Source: an uncultured bacterium
GTDB taxonomy: Bacteria; UBA8481
NCBI GenBank assembly: GCA_964499705.1
Contig: CAZCME010000013.1
Location: 45,217-109,216 of the forward strand
DNA: 64,000 nt
Direction of reading: 5' to 3'
Positions 2,201-54,427 of this stretch are shown here, piece by piece. The stretch's first letter is position 1. Each line of letters begins with the position of its first letter. The notes beneath the pieces were generated by a model that was not told where the DNA came from, did not search any database, and worked only from the letters and a program-made list of their open reading frames with translations. The position numbers and the translations under genes are program-made.

Positions 2201-2228
2201 GGGGACATTCTCCAACATTCCAACATTG
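2201..2228 (-). repeat. 28-bp REP-like repeat, copy 1 (reverse orientation of CAATGTTGGAATGTTGGAGAATGTCCCC)
   Basis: Exact GGGGACATTCTCCAACATTCCAACATTG immediately after the stop of the kinase-like gene; inverted partner lies 67 bp downstream. Confidence 0.8.
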
Positions 2229-4943: not shown

Positions 4944-6185
4944 ATGAGACATCCCCTCGGCAATCTTCTCCTGACCCTCTTCTGTTTCACGCCGATGGTT
5001 CCCGCGCACGCGGCCGACACGGTCACCATCTCGCTCTGGCATTCCTTTCGCGGGCAGGAAGCGATGGCCCTGGAGACCGTCGTCGCCACCTTCAACGAGC
5101 AGCATGCCGACAGGCTTGTGACACGGCAGATCGACGGGCATCGCTTCAACGACATCGTCGAGGAGGCATTCCAGAAGAACGGCGGTCCCGACATCGTGGT
5201 CTGGGCGCACGACAAGGTCGGGCCGTGGGCGAACCGCGGCTTCATCCTGCCCCTCGACGATCTCGTCGACACCGATACGCTCGATCTCTACATCCCGAAC
5301 TGCCTCGATGCCGTCCGAAGTTCCGGACGGCTGTACGGCCTGCCCCTCTCCTTTGAAACGCTCATCCTCTATTACAACCGCAACCTTGTCTCCCGTCCTC
5401 CCGCAACCACCGATGAACTGATCGAGATCGCCCGCGGGATTTCCAATCCGGCGGAAAAACGGTACGGCCTTGTTTACGAACGCGGCAATTTCTACTTCCA
5501 CGCGATCTGGCTGCACGGCTTCGGAGGCCGCGTCTTCGACGAAGCGGGCCGGTTCGACGTCCGATCGCCCGCGATGATCCGCTCCCTGGAATTCGCGCGC
5601 GACCTGTCCGCGACGCACCGGATCATCCCGGACACCGTCGACTGGAATGTCGAGATCGACCTCTTCAATGCCGGTCGCGCCGGCATGCTCATCAGCGGCC
5701 CCTGGGCCTGGGGCAGTCTCGACTGGGACAGCGTTCCAGTCGGCATCGCGGCAATGCCCGTCGTCTCCGCGACGAACCGGTTCGCCGCGCCGTTTCTCGG
5801 AGTCAAAGGCTTCTACATCAATGCCAGGTCCGCGCATCCCCGATCCAGCCTGGCCGCGATGACGCACCTCACGTCCGCCTTCAGCGGATGCCTCATGAAC
5901 GTGATGGCCGGCTATCTCCCCGCGAACCGGTTCGCGTATGAATTCAACGCGCTCGCGGAGCATCCCATCACGGCGAAGTGCGAGGAGCAGGTCGATTCGA
6001 CGGTGCTGATGCCGTCGAGCCGGGAGATGGGGTATGTGTGGCAGGTGATGATCCACGACAATGCCACGAACCACCCGGGATGTCTTGACAGGATTTTCCT
6101 GGAAGGAGTATCCGCGGAAGACGCGGCGCAGGAAGCATGGAATCGCTACCAGGCGCTGGCGGAAGCCGATCAGCGCGGAAAGTGA
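4944..6185 (+). CDS. ABC transporter substrate-binding protein (family 1 solute-binding, sugar type), orphan
   Basis: ORF 4872..6185; start placed at Met 4944 giving a signal peptide MRHPLGNLLLTLFCFTPMVPAHAAD; mature part resembles MalE-type binding proteins. No permease or ATPase genes adjacent. Confidence 0.65.
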   Translation: MRHPLGNLLLTLFCFTPMVPAHAADTVTISLWHSFRGQEAMALETVVATFNEQHADRLVTRQIDGHRFNDIVEEAFQKNGGPDIVVWAHDKVGPWANRGFILPLDDLVDTDTLDLYIPNCLDAVRSSGRLYGLPLSFETLILYYNRNLVSRPPATTDELIEIARGISNPAEKRYGLVYERGNFYFHAIWLHGFGGRVFDEAGRFDVRSPAMIRSLEFARDLSATHRIIPDTVDWNVEIDLFNAGRAGMLISGPWAWGSLDWDSVPVGIAAMPVVSATNRFAAPFLGVKGFYINARSAHPRSSLAAMTHLTSAFSGCLMNVMAGYLPANRFAYEFNALAEHPITAKCEEQVDSTVLMPSSREMGYVWQVMIHDNATNHPGCLDRIFLEGVSAEDAAQEAWNRYQALAEADQRGK

Positions 6186-6366
6186 GCGCATTCGGGCGGG
6201 CGGAAAAAGAAAAACCCCCGGAAGCGAGCGTCGCTCCGAGGGTTTCCTTGTCCCGGAATCCTTGACCCTTTTCAGGGGGCGTTCCGATTCCGAGCTTTAA
6301 ACCTCTGTTCGATTTCAGCGACCTGCTTTACCTTTTAGAAGGGCGGCCGCAACCTGTCCGAACGCG

Positions 6367-29367: not shown

Positions 29368-32055
29368 ATGTTGACCTCTTCCGACATCCGCGAGTCGTTC
29401 CTCGGCTTCTTCGAGAAAAAAGGCCACCGCCGCGTGCCGTCGTCGCCCCTGCTGCCCGCGGAGGATCCGACCCTTCTGTTCACGAACGCGGGCATGAACC
29501 AGTTCAAGCTCGTTTTCACCGGCCGCGAATCGCGCGACTACAACCGGGCGGCTTCCTCGCAGCGTTGCGTGCGTGCGGGCGGCAAGCATAACGACCTGGA
29601 GAATGTCGGATACACGGCTCGCCACCACACCTTCTTCGAAATGCTGGGCAATTTCTCCTTCGGGGATTACTTCAAGGAAGGCGCCATCTCCTTCGCTTAC
29701 GATCTCCTCGTTCGAGAATGGAAGATGGATCCGGCGCGGCTCCTCTTCACGGTCTTCTCCGGCGAAGGCGGAATCCCGGCCGACGACGAGGCGCGCTCGT
29801 TGTGGAAGAAGATCGCGGGAGTCGGAGACGACCGCGTGCTGGGGCTGGGGATGCAGGACAATTTCTGGGCGATGGGCGACACGGGGCCGTGCGGACCGTG
29901 TTCCGAGATCCATTACCACCTGGGCGACGACATCGCGTGCGCGGAAGAGTCGGCCGGACGAAAATGCAAAGGTGTCGCGTGCGATTGCGACCGCTGGATG
30001 GAGATCTGGAACCTTGTCTTCATGCAGTACGAGCGATCGGGCGAAGGCGTGCTGACTCCCCTGCCTGCTCCCTCGATCGACACGGGCATGGGACTGGAGC
30101 GCGTCACCGCGGTCCTGCAGGGTAAACGCTCCAACTACGATACCGATCTTTTCCAGCGGATCATCGCGGAGATCGGATCGCGCATGAACAGGACCTATGG
30201 TCAGGAGGAGACGACCGACGTCTCCCTCAGGGTCGTCGCGGATCACCTCCGCGCCGCCGCGTTTCTCATCGCGGACGGCATCTATCCCTCGAACGAAGGG
30301 CGGGGCTATGTGCTGCGGAGGATCATGCGCCGTATGATCCGGCATGTCCGACTGATGGGTTCGCACGAACCCGTGGCCTTCACGCTCGTGCCCGTTCTCG
30401 TCGAGCTGATGGGCCAGGCTCATCCCGTCCTGGAAGAACGCGCGGCGATCATCACGCAGGCGATCCGCCGCGAGGAGGAGACATTCCTCGTCACGCTCGA
30501 TCGGGGCCTGTTGCTCCTGGACGAAGCCATCGCATCCCTGAAGGAGAAGACGATCCCCGGCAGCATCGTCTTCAAGCTGTATGACACATACGGATTTCCT
30601 CCGGACCTGACCGCCCTTCTCGCGCGCGACCGGAATCTCGCGATCGACCAGCCGGGATTCGACGCGGAAATGGCGGCTCAGCGGGATCGTTCGAGAAAGG
30701 CTTCGAGCTTCGAAGCGGCGGCGGAGATCGACACGGATGTGGAGACGCCGACGGAGTTCGTGGGATACGAGGAGCTCCGCGCGGATGCGCGCGTCCTCAC
30801 GGTCTTTCCCGAGGCGAACGGGAAGCATTGCGTCGTCCTCGATCGTTCGCCTTTCTACGCCGAGTCCGGCGGCCAGGTCGGCGATCAAGGCCTCATTTCG
30901 GGCGGAACAGCCCGCTTCCAGGTGGAGGGAACCATCAAGAATTCCCGGGGTGTTTATTTCCACACGGGCGTATTCGAATCCGGAATGCTCGACGTGGGCG
31001 CCCTAGTCCGCGCGGAGGTCAATCGCGGTGCGCGCGTGGCGACGGAGCGCCATCATACGGGAACGCATCTGCTTCACGCCGCGCTTCACGAAGTGCTGGG
31101 AGATCACGTACGGCAGGCCGGGTCGCTCGTGACGCCCGACAGGCTGCGCTTCGACTTCGCTCATTTCCAGGCCATGACTCCGGAAGAAATCCGAAAGGTC
31201 GAAGAAATCGCGAACGCCGCCGTGCTCGCCGACCTGGATGTCACGAAGCGGGTCTACCCCATAGAGGAAGCGAAGAAGATGGGGGCGAAGATGTTCTTCG
31301 GGGACAAGTACGGGGAACTGGTCCGCGTCGTCTCGATCGAAGGGCGCAGCGATTACGGCGAGAGCTCTTCGGCCGCTCGGGAAGTTGCATCGCGAGAGTT
31401 CTGCGGCGGCACTCATGTCCGGCGGAGCGGCGAGATCGGGATCATCAGGATCCTCTCGGAGTCGGCCATCTCGGCGGGAGTCCGGCGCATGGAAGCCGTG
31501 GCCGGAACGAAAGCGCTGGAGCATGTCGTCCGCCACGAGGAGATACTGCACACGGTCGGAGCCAGGCTAACTTCGACCGTGGCTGAGCTGCCGGAGCGGC
31601 TGGAGCGGGTGCTCGACGAGAGGAAAAAGCTCCAGAAGGAACTGGCGCGAGCGCGCGCGGAAAAGGCGATGCGGGAGGCGGATGAAGCCGTGAAGGGATT
31701 TCAGGACCTCGGCGGCGTCCGGCTGGGCGCGGCCTTCATCGAGGACATCGATCGCACCGCCATGCGACTGGTCGGAGACAAGCTCTTGCAATCCATCGGC
31801 AGCGGCGTCATCATCGTCGGCAGCAATCCCGCCGATGACGAAGGCCGCAGGAAAGCCGCGCTCTGCGTCCTCGTCTCCAAAGATCGGACGAACATCGTCA
31901 AGGCGGGTGACATCGTCGCGCGGCTGGCGAAGATATGCGGCGGCGGCGGCGGGGGACGACCTGAGATTGCCGAAGCGGGCGGCAAGGATGCGGCGAAGGT
32001 GCCCGAGGCGATCGATGCCGCGGCCGGAATCGTAAAGGAGCTGATGAAAGCATGA
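29368..32055 (+). CDS. alaS: Alanine--tRNA ligase
   Basis: ORF 29350..32055 trimmed to Met 29368 (MLTSSDIRESFLGFFEKKGH...); class II aaRS motifs and AlaS editing/C-terminal regions (HHTGTHLLH). Confidence 0.9.
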   Translation: MLTSSDIRESFLGFFEKKGHRRVPSSPLLPAEDPTLLFTNAGMNQFKLVFTGRESRDYNRAASSQRCVRAGGKHNDLENVGYTARHHTFFEMLGNFSFGDYFKEGAISFAYDLLVREWKMDPARLLFTVFSGEGGIPADDEARSLWKKIAGVGDDRVLGLGMQDNFWAMGDTGPCGPCSEIHYHLGDDIACAEESAGRKCKGVACDCDRWMEIWNLVFMQYERSGEGVLTPLPAPSIDTGMGLERVTAVLQGKRSNYDTDLFQRIIAEIGSRMNRTYGQEETTDVSLRVVADHLRAAAFLIADGIYPSNEGRGYVLRRIMRRMIRHVRLMGSHEPVAFTLVPVLVELMGQAHPVLEERAAIITQAIRREEETFLVTLDRGLLLLDEAIASLKEKTIPGSIVFKLYDTYGFPPDLTALLARDRNLAIDQPGFDAEMAAQRDRSRKASSFEAAAEIDTDVETPTEFVGYEELRADARVLTVFPEANGKHCVVLDRSPFYAESGGQVGDQGLISGGTARFQVEGTIKNSRGVYFHTGVFESGMLDVGALVRAEVNRGARVATERHHTGTHLLHAALHEVLGDHVRQAGSLVTPDRLRFDFAHFQAMTPEEIRKVEEIANAAVLADLDVTKRVYPIEEAKKMGAKMFFGDKYGELVRVVSIEGRSDYGESSSAAREVASREFCGGTHVRRSGEIGIIRILSESAISAGVRRMEAVAGTKALEHVVRHEEILHTVGARLTSTVAELPERLERVLDERKKLQKELARARAEKAMREADEAVKGFQDLGGVRLGAAFIEDIDRTAMRLVGDKLLQSIGSGVIIVGSNPADDEGRRKAALCVLVSKDRTNIVKAGDIVARLAKICGGGGGGRPEIAEAGGKDAAKVPEAIDAAAGIVKELMKA

Positions 32056-32225
32056 AGCAGAAAAGGAAGTCGGGAGAGACCACGGACGAAATGGAACAGG
32101 CGGAACTCGCGACCCTGGCTCCGGAGCTGGCGGCGAACGACAAGAGCGAAGAGAAAGCCTGGGGCATCAAGACCGACAAGGCGGCCTACAGCCGCCAGCG
32201 CATCGACATACCCGACCGCTGGTAA
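32052..32225 (+). CDS. Hypothetical 57-aa hydrophilic small protein
   Basis: ATG at 32052 overlaps the alaS stop (ATGA); my translation MKQKRKSGETTDEMEQAELATLAPELAANDKSEEKAWGIKTDKAAYSRQRIDIPDRW with genome-like GC-rich third positions. Below the ORF-track length cut-off. Confidence 0.25.
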   Translation: MKQKRKSGETTDEMEQAELATLAPELAANDKSEEKAWGIKTDKAAYSRQRIDIPDRW

Positions 32226-32241: not shown

Positions 32242-32649
32242 TTGAGCAAGCCCTCGACCGTCCTCGCCGTCGACGCCGGCACGGTCCGGATCGGCTTGGC
32301 GATTTCCGACGAGACCGGCACGTTTGCATTTCCCCTCGAAGTCATCCCCGCAAAAAATGCGATTGCGCGAATCAAGGCGCTCTGCGAGGAGCGCACGGTG
32401 ACGCAGGTGATCGTGGGACTGCCGCTGACGATGAAGGGAGACATCGGCCCCGAAGCCGCGCGTGTGGAGAAGTTCATCCGGAAACTTCAGCGCGCTCTTC
32501 AACCCCTGCCCGTGACCGCCGTCGATGAACGGCTCAGTTCACTCGTGGCGGACCGTATTCTCGAATCCGGCAAGGGACACCCAAAGCGCGACGCCGTGGC
32601 GGCGGCGGTGATACTGGAGAGCTATCTGAAGACGATCAATGACAAATGA
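32242..32649 (+). CDS. ruvX: Putative pre-16S rRNA nuclease / Holliday junction resolvase-like protein (RuvX/YqgF)
   Basis: 135-aa ORF (TTG start in track) with VLAVDAGTVRIGLAISD... and VIVGLPLTMKGDIGPEA; canonical position downstream of alaS. Confidence 0.8.
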   Translation: MSKPSTVLAVDAGTVRIGLAISDETGTFAFPLEVIPAKNAIARIKALCEERTVTQVIVGLPLTMKGDIGPEAARVEKFIRKLQRALQPLPVTAVDERLSSLVADRILESGKGHPKRDAVAAAVILESYLKTINDK

Positions 32650-32719
32650 CGAATGAACAACGACTGATGAACAATTCCTGATTGTTCATCAGTCGTTGTT
32701 CATTCGTCATTTGTCATTG
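32637..32719. terminator. Perfect 39-bp inverted repeat with 5-nt loop; candidate bidirectional terminator
   Basis: Arms 32637..32675 and 32681..32719 are exact reverse complements (loop TCCTG). The arms contain the last codons and stops of convergent ruvX and asnB, so both proteins end in NDK. Confidence 0.5.
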
Positions 32720-34617
32720 GAACCCTGGTCCGCAAACTGACGGTGCCATAGCTCCAGCATCAGAAGCGCCCAGAGACGGAAGGCATTATTGCGGCGACCG
32801 GCCTTGTGGTCATCAATGAGGCGTTCGATGACTTCGCGCTTGAAGTAGCCGCGCGCGAGGGAACCCGAGTCCAGGAGGATCTCGCGAATATATCCGTGCA
32901 GCTCGCCCTGGAACCAATGCGAAAGCGGAACGCTGAAGCCCATCTTTCTTCGATAGAGAATCTCATACGGCAATATTCCGTGATGCGCTTCCTTCAAAAT
33001 TTTCTTCGACGAGAACGCTCCGACTTTCCACGTCCGCGGCAGGGAAGCGGCGAACTCCATGATCGACGTGTCGAGGAGAGGCGATCGGGTTTCGAGCGAG
33101 ACGGCCATGGAGGCGACATCGACCTTCACGAGAAGCGTATCCGGCAGGTACATGAGCGTATCGGAACGGAGAACGCGGTCGACGAGATCGGCCTTGCGGG
33201 GATTGTCCCAGCCGTCGGTCATGAGACGGAGGAGATAATCGTCGGCGGAGTGGTTGCCGAGCCGGGCGCGAAATTCGTCGGAGTACATCTGTTGCCGCGC
33301 CTCGGCGTCGAAGTATGCGAAGATGCTGAGATTGAACTTGTCCGGAGTGCATTGCGAGGCTCGCGCGAAGCGGCGGATCTTCCTCGCGAGCGATCGGTTT
33401 TGCACTCCCTCGGGAAGCCATGACGTCGCTTTTTCCGTGAGCGAGCGTATGCCGGAGGTCGTGAGGCTGGAATAAAGCCCGTGCATGAGGAGCGCGCGGT
33501 AGCGCTCGTAGCCACCGAAGTATTCGTCTCCCCCGTCGCCGTTCAACGCCACCGTGACGCGCTGGCGCGTCATGCGGCTGACGTAGTAGGTCGGCAGGGC
33601 GGACGAGTCGGCGTAGGGCTGGTCGTAGTGCCAGACGAGCTTCGGCAGGATCTCCATGGCGTCCGGTTCGACGATGAATTCCTCGTGCTGCGTGCCAAAC
33701 TTCTCCGCGACCATCCGGGCATACTGGGTCTCGTTGAAATCCCTGTTCGGAAATCCGATGGAAAACGTTTTGACCGGCGCGGAGGATACTTCCGCCATGG
33801 CGGAAACCACCGCCGAGGAATCGACGCCTCCGGAAAGAAACGCGCCGAGCGGAACGTCGGATATGAGCCGGGCTTTTGTGGCGTCGACGATCAATTCGCG
33901 TAGCCTGATTTTCGCGTCGTCGTACGAGAGATCGGTCTTCCGGACCCAATCCGCCTGCCAGTAGGTTTCGATCTTTGCGCTTTCGCCTGTCCAGACGAGT
34001 CGCGAAGCGGGAGGCAGGCGATGCACGCCATTGAAGATGGTTTTCGTTCCCGGAATCGACTGATATGTAAGATACAGATCGATCGACTCCGGATCGATTT
34101 CGCGCGGGCAGTTCGGAAGCGTCAGGAGCGCCTTGATCTCCGACGCGAAGTAGATCCCCTCGGCGTCCTCGAACCAGTACACCGGTTTTTTGCCCGCGCG
34201 ATCGCGCGCGATGAGGAGCGAGCGATCCCGCGTGTTCCAGATCGCGAACGCGAACATGCCCCTCAGTTTTTCCGGAACGCGCGCGCCGAGTTCCTCATAG
34301 AGATGAACGATCGCCTCCGTGTCGGAATGCGTCCGAAATCGATGACCCCTGGATTCCAGATCCGGCCGCAGCTCGAGAAAGTTGTATACCTCCCCGTTGA
34401 ACGTGATCCAGACCGATTCGTCCTCGTTGGACAAGGGTTGCCTGCCGCCCTCGAGATCGATGATGGAGAGCCGGCGATGTCCAAGCCCACAGCCTTCCAG
34501 CGCGACGTGCCCTTCCCCGTCGGGACCGCGATGGACCAGCGTATCGGTCATACGTTTGAGAACGGAAACGTCGGGCTTGCGCCCATCTCGATAAACAATT
34601 CCAGCTATGCCGCACAT
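32707..34617 (-). CDS. asnB: Asparagine synthase (glutamine-hydrolysing)
   Basis: ORF 32707..34647 trimmed to Met 34617 so the protein begins MCGIAGIV (catalytic Cys2); PP-loop SGGVDSS; the upstream 10 codons of the track ORF are encoded by a repeat copy. Confidence 0.85.
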   Translation of the reverse strand: MCGIAGIVYRDGRKPDVSVLKRMTDTLVHRGPDGEGHVALEGCGLGHRRLSIIDLEGGRQPLSNEDESVWITFNGEVYNFLELRPDLESRGHRFRTHSDTEAIVHLYEELGARVPEKLRGMFAFAIWNTRDRSLLIARDRAGKKPVYWFEDAEGIYFASEIKALLTLPNCPREIDPESIDLYLTYQSIPGTKTIFNGVHRLPPASRLVWTGESAKIETYWQADWVRKTDLSYDDAKIRLRELIVDATKARLISDVPLGAFLSGGVDSSAVVSAMAEVSSAPVKTFSIGFPNRDFNETQYARMVAEKFGTQHEEFIVEPDAMEILPKLVWHYDQPYADSSALPTYYVSRMTRQRVTVALNGDGGDEYFGGYERYRALLMHGLYSSLTTSGIRSLTEKATSWLPEGVQNRSLARKIRRFARASQCTPDKFNLSIFAYFDAEARQQMYSDEFRARLGNHSADDYLLRLMTDGWDNPRKADLVDRVLRSDTLMYLPDTLLVKVDVASMAVSLETRSPLLDTSIMEFAASLPRTWKVGAFSSKKILKEAHHGILPYEILYRRKMGFSVPLSHWFQGELHGYIREILLDSGSLARGYFKREVIERLIDDHKAGRRNNAFRLWALLMLELWHRQFADQGSNDK

Positions 34618-34629
34618 GGGGGAAGAATA

Positions 34630-34657
34630 GGGGACATTCTCCAACATTCCAACATTG
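34630..34657 (-). repeat. 28-bp REP-like repeat, copy 3
   Basis: Exact GGGGACATTCTCCAACATTCCAACATTG; on the minus strand it ends 12 nt upstream of the asnB ATG. Confidence 0.8.
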
Positions 34658-34826
34658 AGGATGAAGGAGTTATGGAATTCATTCCTAAAGGAATCATGAA
34701 AAGTTCATCATCATCTCGCGGGAAAATGCATCTGGGATATTTTTCAAGGCTGGAATCGCTGAAAATAGGGTCCAACACGCGAATGCGTCTGAGTTTTCAT
34801 CGTTTCAACCCCGATAAAATCCAGAC

Positions 34827-35849
34827 CTAAACGACTAACTCCTGCTGCGTCAATGTTGGAATGTTGGAGAATGTCCCCCTGATTGCTTCGGCAAGGGCTC
34901 CTTTGCGCCTGTCTTTTCGCATGCGAGAAACGATCATCGAATAATAACCATTCGGGTGGCGATCGCCGTCCTCATGCTGGATACGGTCGTAGGTCCAGCG
35001 GGCCAGCTCATGCGCAATGTAGATCGTGAGTTCGCGGTGCATCGCCTCGATCGACGACCATGCCTGGCGGCGCATTTCGGATGTGGCCATGACGAACCGG
35101 TCGGCCATCTGCTGAAGATCGCTCCAGGACCACGACACGGCGTCGCGGTCCATCGTGCGTCGCTTTCTGGTTTCTTCGAACCGCTGACGGCGTTCCGTCT
35201 GGAGTTCGATACGCTTTCGAAATAGATGCGAGCTCATGAAACGGCCGTTATGGCCCTCGCGAAACAGTGTTTCGTTGGATTCTGCGTTGAGTTCATTGAA
35301 CCATCTGTCCAATACGCCCAACTGTTTAACATGATCGAAGGAGGAGATGTTCTTTCCGAAGAGTTGCTCGGCGAGCAGATGCCGGTCGACGCGATTTCTC
35401 TGGGTTCCCATGCCCAGCATTTCCCGCGCACTGCACCAAGGATAAAGAAGCGGATCGCGTACGAAACCGGCACGGACTGGATTGAGGATGATGTAGGCGA
35501 CGACGGTTTCAAAGTAGGACTCCGTCTCGATGACGAGCGACTTCGATCTGCCCTGGAAGAGGTGGCCGGTCCGGTCGTGGCGTCGGTTGAGTTCCTGAGA
35601 GGCGCGCGTCAAAAATCGCCGCAGGAATTCCGAAATGTCGCCGCCGGGCGTTCGAAGGCAGAAATGAAAATGATTCGGCATGAGACAATAGGCATACGTG
35701 ACGACGCGAAACATCTTTGCCGACTCGAAATAGAGATCGAGAAATCGACGGTAATCGGACTCGTGCTGGAAGAACGGGTGCTTGTCGACGAAGCGATTGA
35801 GGACGTGGTAGACGGCGTCCTTGTAGGCGATGCGTGGACCTCTGGACAT
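34827..35849 (-). CDS. IS200-like Y1 (HUH) transposase, REP-associated tyrosine transposase (RAYT)-like
   Basis: 340-aa ORF; HUH motif CLMPNHFHFCL and tyrosine motif VAYIILNPVRAGFV align by eye with the PEHMHCIW and YIYINPVK regions of E. coli RayT; N-terminal AVYHVLNR. C-terminal codons read through a repeat copy. Confidence 0.75.
   Translation of the reverse strand: MSRGPRIAYKDAVYHVLNRFVDKHPFFQHESDYRRFLDLYFESAKMFRVVTYAYCLMPNHFHFCLRTPGGDISEFLRRFLTRASQELNRRHDRTGHLFQGRSKSLVIETESYFETVVAYIILNPVRAGFVRDPLLYPWCSAREMLGMGTQRNRVDRHLLAEQLFGKNISSFDHVKQLGVLDRWFNELNAESNETLFREGHNGRFMSSHLFRKRIELQTERRQRFEETRKRRTMDRDAVSWSWSDLQQMADRFVMATSEMRRQAWSSIEAMHRELTIYIAHELARWTYDRIQHEDGDRHPNGYYSMIVSRMRKDRRKGALAEAIRGTFSNIPTLTQQELVV
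34851..34878 (+). repeat. 28-bp REP-like repeat, copy 4
   Basis: Exact CAATGTTGGAATGTTGGAGAATGTCCCC; inverted partner of copy 3 with a 193-bp spacer; lies inside the last ~17 codons of the transposase ORF. Confidence 0.8.
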
Positions 35850-36286: not shown

Positions 36287-36332
36287 GAAAAGTGTCGAAT
36301 CCTGGACACATGTCCAGAATTCGACACTTTTC
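36287..36332. promoter_or_regulatory. 46-bp imperfect dyad symmetry, candidate operator
   Basis: GAAAAGTGTCGAAT-CCTGGACA-CA-TGTCCAGA-ATTCGACACTTTTC; 14-bp outer arms perfect, inner arms 7 of 8; located ~85 bp upstream of the small gene preceding the transposase. Confidence 0.3.
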
Positions 36333-37496: not shown

Positions 37497-37627
37497 TTTT
37501 CGTGACTGTGAAAGGAGATATTCTCTACATTCCTACATTTAAATAAATGAGTTGCAGAAGCGTCATTCCGGCGAATACAAAATTTGCATTTGCTCTGAAC
37601 AACTGCCTTCTCTAACTCCATCATCCT

Positions 37628-37655
37628 CAATGTTGGAATGTTGGAGAATGTCCCC
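37628..37655 (+). repeat. 28-bp REP-like repeat, copy 5
   Basis: Exact CAATGTTGGAATGTTGGAGAATGTCCCC ending 14 nt upstream of the STAS gene ATG. Confidence 0.8.
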
Positions 37656-45037: not shown

Positions 45038-45040
45038 GGA

Positions 45041-45069
45041 GGGGAAATTCTATGTTGGAGAATGTCCCC
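45041..45069 (+). repeat. Degenerate hairpin copy of the 28-bp repeat family, copy 6
   Basis: GGGGAAATTCT-ATGTTGG-AGAATGTCCCC: the right half matches the family consensus (ATGTTGGAGAATGTCCCC), the left arm is its near-complement. Confidence 0.6.
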
Positions 45070-53162: not shown

Positions 53163-53194
53163 CCAAATCCCAAATCCCAAATCCCGAATCCCAA
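53163..53194. repeat. Tandem heptanucleotide repeat (CCAAATC, ~4.5 copies, one variant)
   Basis: CCAAATC CCAAATC CCAAATC CCGAATC CCAA in the intergenic region; an inverted complement TTGGGATTTGGATT occurs at 53267..53280 abutting the HD-GYP gene start. Confidence 0.7.
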
Positions 53195-53257: not shown

Positions 53258-54427
53258 ATGTGTATTTTGGGATTTGGATTAATGTACACAGTCGAAGTGC
53301 GCGACGCGAAGGCGGGCATGACGCTCTCGCGGCCGGTCTTCACCCGGAACGGAAACCTGCTCCTCGATGCCGGCACCCGCCTCTCCGATCATACCCTCGA
53401 CCTGCTCGATCTCTGGGGCATCTTCGACATCCAGGTCGATTCGATCGACTCGCCTTCCGGTCACGCGCCCGCTCCCCGGCAGAAGAAAAAGTTCGATCCT
53501 GTGAAGCGCGAGGCCGAGAAGAAGCGAGTGGAGGATGTGGGCGGCTGGGTGCGCGATGAGATCGAGGGTCTCATGAAGCAGATGAATTCCGGGGGAAGGG
53601 ACATCGACATGGAGCGGCTCAAGGGAGTCGCGGAGTCGATCGTGGAGGAATCCATGAAGGACAACGAGCTGATGGTCTCCCTGACGACGCTCATGGACTT
53701 CGACAGCTATCTCTTCTCGCACGCCGTCCACGTCTCGATTCTCTCCGTCGTGATCGGCATCGCGATGGGCCTCACGCAGAAGGAAATCCAATCGCTGGCC
53801 ATCGGAGGAGCGCTCATCGATCTCGGAATGCTTAAGGTGGACCGGAAAATATGGGATAAGGACGGCGTCCTGTCGGAAGCCGAGTTCAACTTCGTGAAAC
53901 AGCATCCGCTCCTGGGATTGAAGGACGCCGAGCCGCACTGCCGGGGCGATGTGGCTTCTCTCCGGATCATCGCGGAGCATCACGAGCGGCTGGACGGATC
54001 GGGCTATCCCCGGAAGCTGCGGGACAAGGCGATTCATCCTCTGGCGAAGATCGTCGCCGTCTGCGACATCTATGACGCGATGCAGCAGCCCCGCGCCTAC
54101 AGGAAGAAGTGGCTCCCCTACCAGGTCATGGGCCATCTGCTCGTCTCGTCCACGGAGACCCTGGACGCGCAGGTTGTGAAGACTTTTCTCCGCACGATGT
54201 CCGCGTATCCCATCGGATCGTTCGTGAAGATGGATACCGGCCAGGTCGGCGTCGTCGTCTCCTCCAATCCCGCCAGCCCGATCCGACCTGTCGTGAAGCT
54301 CTTCCTGCTGGCTTCGGGAGAGACCATGGAGAAGCCGGAATTCGCGGATCTTTCCGCCGATAAGAGATTCATCATCGGACCGATCGATCCCCGCCAGATC
54401 CACGTCAAACCCTTCGATGTTTTCTAA
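53258..54427 (+). CDS. HD-GYP domain phosphodiesterase (c-di-GMP-type)
   Basis: HD motif (HAVHVS) and EHHERLDGSGYPRKL GYP signature. Alternative start at Met 53282 (MYTVEVRD...) would place the inverted heptamer segment in the 5' leader. Confidence 0.8.
   Translation: MCILGFGLMYTVEVRDAKAGMTLSRPVFTRNGNLLLDAGTRLSDHTLDLLDLWGIFDIQVDSIDSPSGHAPAPRQKKKFDPVKREAEKKRVEDVGGWVRDEIEGLMKQMNSGGRDIDMERLKGVAESIVEESMKDNELMVSLTTLMDFDSYLFSHAVHVSILSVVIGIAMGLTQKEIQSLAIGGALIDLGMLKVDRKIWDKDGVLSEAEFNFVKQHPLLGLKDAEPHCRGDVASLRIIAEHHERLDGSGYPRKLRDKAIHPLAKIVAVCDIYDAMQQPRAYRKKWLPYQVMGHLLVSSTETLDAQVVKTFLRTMSAYPIGSFVKMDTGQVGVVVSSNPASPIRPVVKLFLLASGETMEKPEFADLSADKRFIIGPIDPRQIHVKPFDVF

Follow-up and report, generated by a model that had tools for sequence, protein, structure and literature searches.

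The convergent genes ruvX and asnB of a Candidatus Hydrogenedentota MAG from groundwater (Hainich H51) end in a perfect palindrome of 83 nt which, judged by its sequence, is an inverted pair of nAATGAC heptanucleotide arrays of the intergenic heptameric simple-sequence repeat class. The reading favored here, at a probability of about 0.55, is that of a lineage-specific inverted heptad pair that arose by slippage and by the copying of one arm and that forms a probable 3'-end hairpin shared by both genes. The palindrome is an extreme case within a known, poorly understood kind of heptamer repeat. Positions are those of the window, the whole 64-kb stretch of DNA that was analyzed.

The left arm (32637..32675, plus strand) consists of the units CAATGAC, AAATGAC, GAATGAA, CAACGAC, and TGATGAA followed by a partial CAAT, or about 5.5 heptads. 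An asymmetric 5-nt loop, TCCTG (32676..32680), separates it from the right arm (32681..32719, minus strand), which is its exact reverse complement and carries the same nAATGAC array on the sense strand of asnB. The perfect 39-bp palindrome with a 5-nt loop described in the initial annotation was recovered as such: the arms are complementary at 39 of 39 positions (100 %), and a 40th pair could be added in the RNA stem through a U-G wobble. It is the sole perfect stem of at least 12 bp with a loop of at most 10 nt in the window, and the longest perfect stem in the approximately 930 kb examined. Across 100 shuffles, no arm-like match was obtained with up to three mismatches allowed. The RNA has a minimum free energy of −68.3 kcal/mol (z = −12.3), a stability attained by 0 of 200 shuffled sequences, and the DNA hairpin one of −47.1 kcal/mol (z = −14.6). 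The G+C content of the arms is 36 % against 60 % for the window. A search of Rfam 15 returned no family that reached its gathering threshold (best score 46.8 bits; gathering score 90); the sub-threshold matches were to miRNA-precursor hairpin models, a generic signal of long hairpins. The palindrome is genuine. Two further independent assemblies (L001 and L002) contain the identical 83 nt, which makes three in total. L002, a strain variant, differs by 13 SNPs over 3.9 kb. Five of these are no farther than 54 nt from the palindrome, which itself contains none; with 0.27 SNPs expected in 83 nt at 0.33 % divergence, this zero is uninformative on conservation. The number of heptads does not differ among the three assemblies, which represent two strains.

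The names of the two genes were borne out by Pfam. The ruvX gene (32242..32649, plus strand; 135 aa) matches RuvX with an E value of 3.6e-35, the domain ending at residue 130, and the left arm covers the gene from the third base of codon 132 through the N-D-K codons (133-135) to the TGA stop codon (32647-32649). The gene for the glutamine-hydrolyzing asparagine synthase AsnB (32707..34647, minus strand; 646 aa as called) matches Asn_synthase and GATase; the Asn_synthase profile has been fully matched by residue 636, and the N-D-K codons and the stop codon (32707-32709) are located in the right arm. Both genes finish with AAT GAC AAA TGA, and the earlier claim that both proteins end in NDK, encoded within the arms, could be verified from the ORF coordinates. 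The two stop codons are 57 nt apart, an interval filled by the palindrome, and the overlap with each gene amounts to its last four codons, stop included.

This shared terminus is a property of the repeat. A TGA occurs every 7 nt in the heptad array, and no frame stays open on either strand; because 7 equals 1 modulo 3, the TGA triplets of successive units fall in successive frames. A canonical array reads nAA-TGA, AAT-GAC-nAA-TGA, or ATG-ACn-AAT-GAC-nAA-TGA in its three frames. Since TGA recurs in every frame, an ORF entering the array must stop at most five codons in, with a suffix of M-T-N-D-x as its end. The NDK end is shared because both genes enter the array in the second register and meet AAA. 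The common C-terminus is dictated by the sequence of the repeat rather than by selection acting on the proteins, and the array provides both stop codons with neither conserved domain truncated.

As a feature of orthologs, the NDK ends did not survive comparison, being absent from the relatives of both proteins. RuvX homologs (at most 58 % identity) carry unconserved tails of 3-30 residues past a conserved ...YL, none of them ending in NDK. The AsnB orthologs (88 %, 77 %, and 76 % identity, and lower) terminate 2-8 residues past LWHR(Q/E)(F/I)(V/L)(D/E), with ends such as ...FVDGTRS (88 %), ...ILEGPAGI (77 %), and ...FVDG, and NDK occurs in none. A PDB search with the AsnB C-terminus gave no matches. 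In the last ten asnB codons, the two strains differ by three SNPs, all of which are nonsynonymous (QFADQGS versus QFVDRSS), which indicates that the asnB tail is unconstrained. What the palindrome replaced is confined to unconserved final residues and, in either gene, the stop codon. Downstream of asnB in the relatives at 88 % and 77 % identity, the heptad palindrome is absent; nucleotide homology to the window ends there approximately 12 nt before the arm, and one of the two has a 10-bp G+C-rich hairpin over its asnB stop codon. Because the ortholog ends differ and these close asnB relatives are devoid of the palindrome, it is regarded as a recent, lineage-specific acquisition.

An empty site was sought on both sides. 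For RuvX, the nearest relatives are just 55-58 % identical, and synteny is lost directly after ruvX, where the downstream genes differ. For AsnB, the 3' flanks of the 88 % and 77 % relatives are without the palindrome but have different neighbor genes, so that the site is not a clean one. A resemblance between the inner arm and the flank of the 88 % relative (L335) lacked significance (56 of 1000 shuffles).

Two observations concern the gene models at this locus. The asnB ORF is called from 34647, and its Met11 is at 34617. The catalytic N-terminal Cys of AsnB must come right after the initiator Met. Because of this, and because all orthologs begin with MCGI, the true start is probably Met11 (34617), which would make the called ORF 10 codons too long; the surplus codons (34617-34647) read through a copy of the REP-B repeat described below. 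Between alaS and ruvX, a 57-aa ORF (32052-32225, plus strand) without a Pfam hit has counterparts of 53-62 aa at a like position in all three of the relatives examined (L003, L005, and L006) and may encode a conserved small protein.

TRF detected a period of 7 on both arms, and phased pattern matches recurred in 7-nt steps. The five full units, which are followed by a partial one, deviate from AATGAC by 0, 0, 1, 1, and 2 mismatches, the outer three being canonical or nearly so and the inner ones degenerate (1-2 mismatches). The outer 19-mer of the arm, CAATGACAAATGACGAATG, was scanned against species-representative genomes (596 Gb, two strands), in which it has at least 119 exact loci versus about 4 expected by chance. 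Nearly all of the loci listed are nAATGAC arrays, and the taxa among them are Nostoc, Calothrix, Chroococcidiopsis, Coleofasciculus, Verrucomicrobia, Planctomycetes, Acidobacteria, Chloroflexi (Anaerolineales), Bacteroidota, NC10, WOR-3, Burkholderiales, and others. At many of the listed loci, the arrays are inverted, with a loop or a small G+C-rich hairpin at the center (e.g., L022, L025, L037, L057, and L090). In viral contigs, the generic pattern AATGACnAATGACnAATGAC was found at no fewer than 120 loci, against 41, 25, and 12 for three composition-matched control heptads. Heptad arrays are common overall, and AATGAC is among the commonest. The inner part of the arm behaved differently: two inner 20-mers had no matches in the species-representative genomes and three in metagenomes, which did not extend past the seed, and two inner-arm 18-mers gave nothing but chance matches in viral contigs. 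A blastn search against plasmids yielded no matches.

Properties of the class were derived from 866 kb of sequence around the listed matches, with an array defined as three or more units. This set contained 198 arrays, most often 3-5 units long, of which 167 were intergenic. The density per kb of gap was 1.43 for co-directional, 1.51 for convergent, and 0.79 for divergent gene pairs; all intergenic types were occupied, and the orientation of the arrays relative to the genes was only mildly biased. The stop codon of 19 of 90 same-sense upstream ORFs was supplied by the array. An inverted partner within 150 nt was seen for 41 % of the arrays versus the approximately 3 % predicted from array density, an excess of about 12-fold. 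Positions 1-6 of the heptad are conserved at 94-99 % and position 7 is free, figures that are partly circular, the arrays having been defined by at most one mismatch. Other perfect stems built of heptads measure 38, 33, 31, 31, 30, and 29 bp and occur in Planctomycetes, Acidobacteria, Nostocaceae, and Ignavibacteriae. Inverted pairs outside this locus are for the most part imperfect, which makes the perfect one described here unusual.

In a Tepidisphaeraceae MAG (SPRUCE 308), near-identical composite heptad palindromes, made up of CCGAAAT, CGAATGA, and AATGACn, are found on three contigs (L031; L094:3978-4118; L128:1045-1157 and 6137-6228). Three betaproteobacterial MAGs (L036, L039, and L050) contain a similar composite of the form AATGAC...TTCGCTTCGC...GTCATT. 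Heptad hairpins act as dispersed repeat families in some lineages.

The STRR heptanucleotides of cyanobacteria, reportedly described by Mazel et al. in 1990, are said to include STRR2, TT(G/T)GTCA. This sequence is the reverse complement of AATGAC(C/A) and so amounts to the heptad of the ruvX-asnB palindrome. Many of the listed CAATGACAAATGACGAATG matches are arrays in Nostoc, Calothrix, Chroococcidiopsis, and Coleofasciculus. Unlike STRR, which are described as long, homogeneous, direct arrays of heterocystous cyanobacteria, the array at ruvX-asnB is short and heterogeneous, forms a perfect inverted hairpin, and is not cyanobacterial. Calothrix heptanucleotide repeats are also cited in PMC4692102. 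The G-rich heptamers of Xanthomonas and Nostoc (GGGAATC and GGGGAYT) have a modal length of approximately 4 units, and their function has not been established; the GGGAATC repeats of Xanthomonas are 89-93 % intergenic and for the most part transcribed, their distance to the preceding ORF averages 28 nt, and 70-75 convergent inverted pairs are counted in each genome (Rehm et al. 2015, PMC4692102). The palindrome resembles these in being composed of intergenic period-7 arrays near an ORF end, arranged as a convergent inverted pair able to form a stem-loop. It differs from them in its A+T-rich unit, nAATGAC, which has no G-quadruplex potential, in its presence in the phylum Hydrogenedentota, and in having arms that are perfect over 39 bp with a 5-nt loop and that overlap two stop codons. 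The TAACTGA repeats of Beggiatoaceae, Cyanobacteria, and Bacteroidetes contain stops in all frames and overlap ORFs by at most 18 nt (MacGregor 2015, PMC4679880). Stops in three forward frames, an ORF overlap of a few codons, and a patchy cross-phylum spread are shared with the heptamer studied here, whereas the TAACTGA repeats occur as 169 direct sets versus 1 indirect repeat, are mostly located just upstream of starts, and have no predicted structure (PMC4679880). For none of these heptamer classes (STRR, Xanthomonas, TAACTGA) is a function established.

The preferred account of a slipped and copied inverted pair comprises two steps. Replication slippage would have built the heptad array; at the level of the class, in viral contigs sampled without bias at the spacer base, that base is common to adjacent units in 70 % of cases versus 26 % expected, and such sharing far above expectation points to slippage duplication. 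An inverted duplication, or a template switch across the hairpin, would then have perfected the stem by using one arm, together with its degenerate units, as the template for the other, recently and in this lineage only. Since the degenerate inner units are identical as well, one arm must derive from the other by copying, and independent slippage cannot account for the pair. Template switching across a quasi-palindrome (Ripley-type correction) is the standard mechanism. Symmetry-maintaining gene conversion, one of three readings offered in the initial annotation, is therefore the best fit of the three, the arms being identical down to their degenerate inner units. Another, an insertion or recombination scar, finds no counterpart in the data: a target-site duplication is absent, and the inner arm is unmatched in public collections. 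Other copies of the arm, which had been thought worth looking for in the genome, are absent at up to 8 mismatches in 39 within approximately 76 kb (the 64-kb window plus 12 kb of flanks), and there is no second nAATGAC array elsewhere in the window.

The remaining reading, a bidirectional terminator, stands in part: a hairpin at both 3' ends is plausible, and a canonical terminator is not what is found, the stem having 36 % G+C, no U-tract, and no call in the intrinsic-terminator scan. The palindrome is flanked by GGAACCC and, on the other strand, by ATCGTCT, and the absence of a U-tract together with the A+T-rich stem explains why the scan did not call it. Canonical terminators around the locus numbered 7 versus 8.3 expected, so no enrichment was apparent. 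The palindrome is probably a shared RNA 3'-end hairpin of ruvX and asnB. The same 39-bp hairpin would form at the 3' end of the transcript of either gene; it would most likely halt or pause RNA polymerase arriving from either side and could also shield the 3' end from exonucleases or offer a site to RNase III; as an outcome, two convergent genes with stops 57 nt apart would be insulated from each other. Such a role is suggested by the position of the palindrome, by its very stable stem, and by two other stop-adjacent heptad hairpins in the genome, one of them U-tailed; it has a precedent in the Xanthomonas heptamers, which lie close to upstream ORFs and are mostly transcribed (PMC4692102).

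The first of these other pairs is a (CCAAATC)x4.6 array (53163-53194, plus strand) that begins 12 nt after a stop codon and has a 2-unit partner approximately 70 nt downstream (~53266-53280; MFE −41.2, z −2.2). The second, (AAGGATG)3 ... (TCATaCT)3TCATCCT, is situated about 5 kb past the window end (L334:12835-12905; −32 kcal/mol, z = −5.4); it starts 3 nt after a stop codon and is followed by the U-rich tail UUAUUUUCU, and it resembles an intrinsic terminator. Approximately 76 kb thus contain three inverted heptad pairs with three different units, all at most 12 nt from a stop codon. As the other pairs are made of unrelated heptads, it is the architecture that recurs in this genome and not the sequence. 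In the relative L335, inverted short tandem repeats with a period of 8-9 (CGCCAAGA...; L335:636-665 and 763-787) were noticed around a stretch of approximately 100 nt upstream of asnB, which suggests that inverted tandem-repeat pairs of varied period are a habit of this lineage.

The main rival is the same inverted heptad pair without any function, a tolerated by-product of slippage and template switching rendered harmless by its stops in all frames; it is thought unlikely, although it is the strongest of the alternatives. Because the orientation bias of the class is weak and all intergenic types are occupied, with mild avoidance of divergent gaps, a neutral repeat fits as well as a functional one. 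Control heptads are also frequent as arrays (12-41 loci, AATGAC having at least 120), the heptamers of Xanthomonas and Nostoc could not be assigned a function (PMC4692102), and the close asnB relatives do without the palindrome. Of the approximately 6 junctions between convergent genes in the window, just 2 have a strong hairpin; such junctions can therefore do without one. Against a functionless repeat stand the three inverted pairs at most 12 nt from stop codons in approximately 76 kb, one with a terminator-like U-tail, the roughly 12-fold excess of inverted pairing over expectation, and the consideration that a 39-bp RNA stem in two mRNAs is unlikely to be without effect.

A broader and distinctly less probable reading takes inverted nAATGAC arrays as such to be a functional or self-propagating element of more than 10 bacterial phyla and many viral contigs. 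They would be either a recognition array for a conserved nucleic-acid-binding protein or a hairpin that grows by alternating slippage and template-switch 'correction' and seeds new transcript ends, the copy at ruvX-asnB being freshly born and having captured the stops of both genes.

Improbable is a protein-binding array of 5+5 inverted heptads, recognized as double-stranded DNA or as single strands like the iterons of ribbon-helix-helix-type proteins, or a cruciform site. The omega repressor of plasmid pSM19035 binds WATCACW heptad arrays, both direct and inverted, which speaks for such a role, as do the resemblance of a conserved hexamer plus one variable base to a recognition motif and the finding that AATGAC is 3-10 times commoner than the composition-matched control heptads (at least 120 loci). 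The conservation of the hexamer is, however, partly circular, since arrays were defined by at most one mismatch, no candidate binding protein is encoded nearby, and the other inverted pairs in the genome use unrelated heptads.

No greater probability is given to a nonautonomous mobile palindrome of the REPIN or MITE type, inserted between the genes and mobilized by a Y1 (RAYT-like) transposase whose gene lies at a distance of 2 kb. The Y1/IS200-like gene in question (Y1_Tnp in Pfam; 34827-35849, minus strand; 340 aa) has homologs named 'REP element-mobilizing transposase RayT' by JGI, and no paralogous Y1 genes above 55 % identity were found. The window also contains a true dispersed REP-like family, REP-B (GGGGACATTCTCCAACATTCCAACATTG), with five exact 28-nt copies in 64 kb. 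REP-B copies are located at 2201-2228 (+), 2296-2323 (−), 34630-34677 (+), 34836-34878 (−), 37515-37540 (+, degenerate), and 37608-37655 (−), and a collapsed mini-hairpin at 45040-45069. They occur in inverted doublets with spacers of 7 to approximately 190 nt, two of the doublets being located between convergent genes; the 2201/2296 doublet has a folding energy of −59 kcal/mol (z = −8.2). The Y1 gene is bracketed by inverted REP-B copies (34630-34677 and 37608-37655; 48 nt, 94 %), and its last codons are encoded by the 34836-34878 copy. Together, the Y1 gene and REP-B look like a RAYT-REPIN system in Hydrogenedentota. The ruvX-asnB palindrome resembles REP/REPIN elements, which often lie at gene 3' ends, in being an intergenic inverted doublet with a long hairpin in a window that also holds a RAYT-like gene and REP-B, and the dispersed, near-identical composite heptad palindromes of one Tepidisphaeraceae MAG would be in keeping with mobility. 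It is, however, single-copy in the sampled genome, with no second arm at up to 8 of 39 mismatches in approximately 76 kb, it is composed of period-7 units unrelated to REP-B, and REP-B is what flanks the transposase gene. Its inner 20-mers lack a true match in the genome, metagenome, and viral collections, and the flanks (...ACGAT|...|GGAAC) contain no direct repeat, i.e., no target-site duplication. A tie between the palindrome and the RAYT-like transposase was consequently rejected, REP-B being the partner of the transposase. Two features of the window may be mentioned beside these repeats. Gene calls in the strain assembly L331 differ from those in L330 and L332 right after a REP-B doublet (window position ~2330 onward); either the region is rearranged or, perhaps, the assembly broke at the repeat. 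At 36287-36332, upstream of a gene whose product has an ExoX-like C-terminal motif, a near-perfect 22-bp palindrome (GAAAAGTGTCGAATCCTGGACA / TGTCCAGAATTCGACACTTTTC; 95 %, 2-nt spacer) may be an operator.

Very improbable is a dedicated bidirectional terminator of the canonical intrinsic kind, without any relation to repeats. Like Rho-independent terminators of this type, the very stable hairpin is centered exactly between convergent stops 57 nt apart and can be read from both strands; unlike them, it lacks a G+C-rich stem and A/U tracts on either strand, has stops inside a stem that at 39 bp is three to four times longer, and escaped the terminator scan, while its heptad periodicity and cross-phylum matches point to a repeat origin. 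An assembly artefact, for instance a hairpin chimera favored by the low contig coverage (cov 3-5), is scarcely credible: the palindrome is located mid-contig, and its sequence agrees among three independent assemblies, one of them a strain variant with nearby SNPs, with unique sequence to its left and right.

In the part of the literature that was covered, no description was found of nAATGAC arrays outside cyanobacteria or paired as hairpins. Among long simple repeats, heptamers are those that bacteria contain in greatest excess, and they are without an accepted function; their over-representation was reported by Mrazek (2007), as summarized in PMC4679880 and PMC4692102. The heptad nAATGAC, which in reverse complement corresponds to STRR2 of cyanobacteria, is found far beyond that phylum, and its arrays are paired into hairpins approximately 12 times above chance. 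In annotation, such arrays are to be expected to end ORFs or, on the GTCATTn strand, to extend them spuriously. The coincidence of two NDK ends at ruvX-asnB is a simple consequence of a TGA-bearing period-7 repeat. A testable idea is that heptad hairpins may serve as generic, easily evolved transcript 3' ends where canonical terminators are absent.
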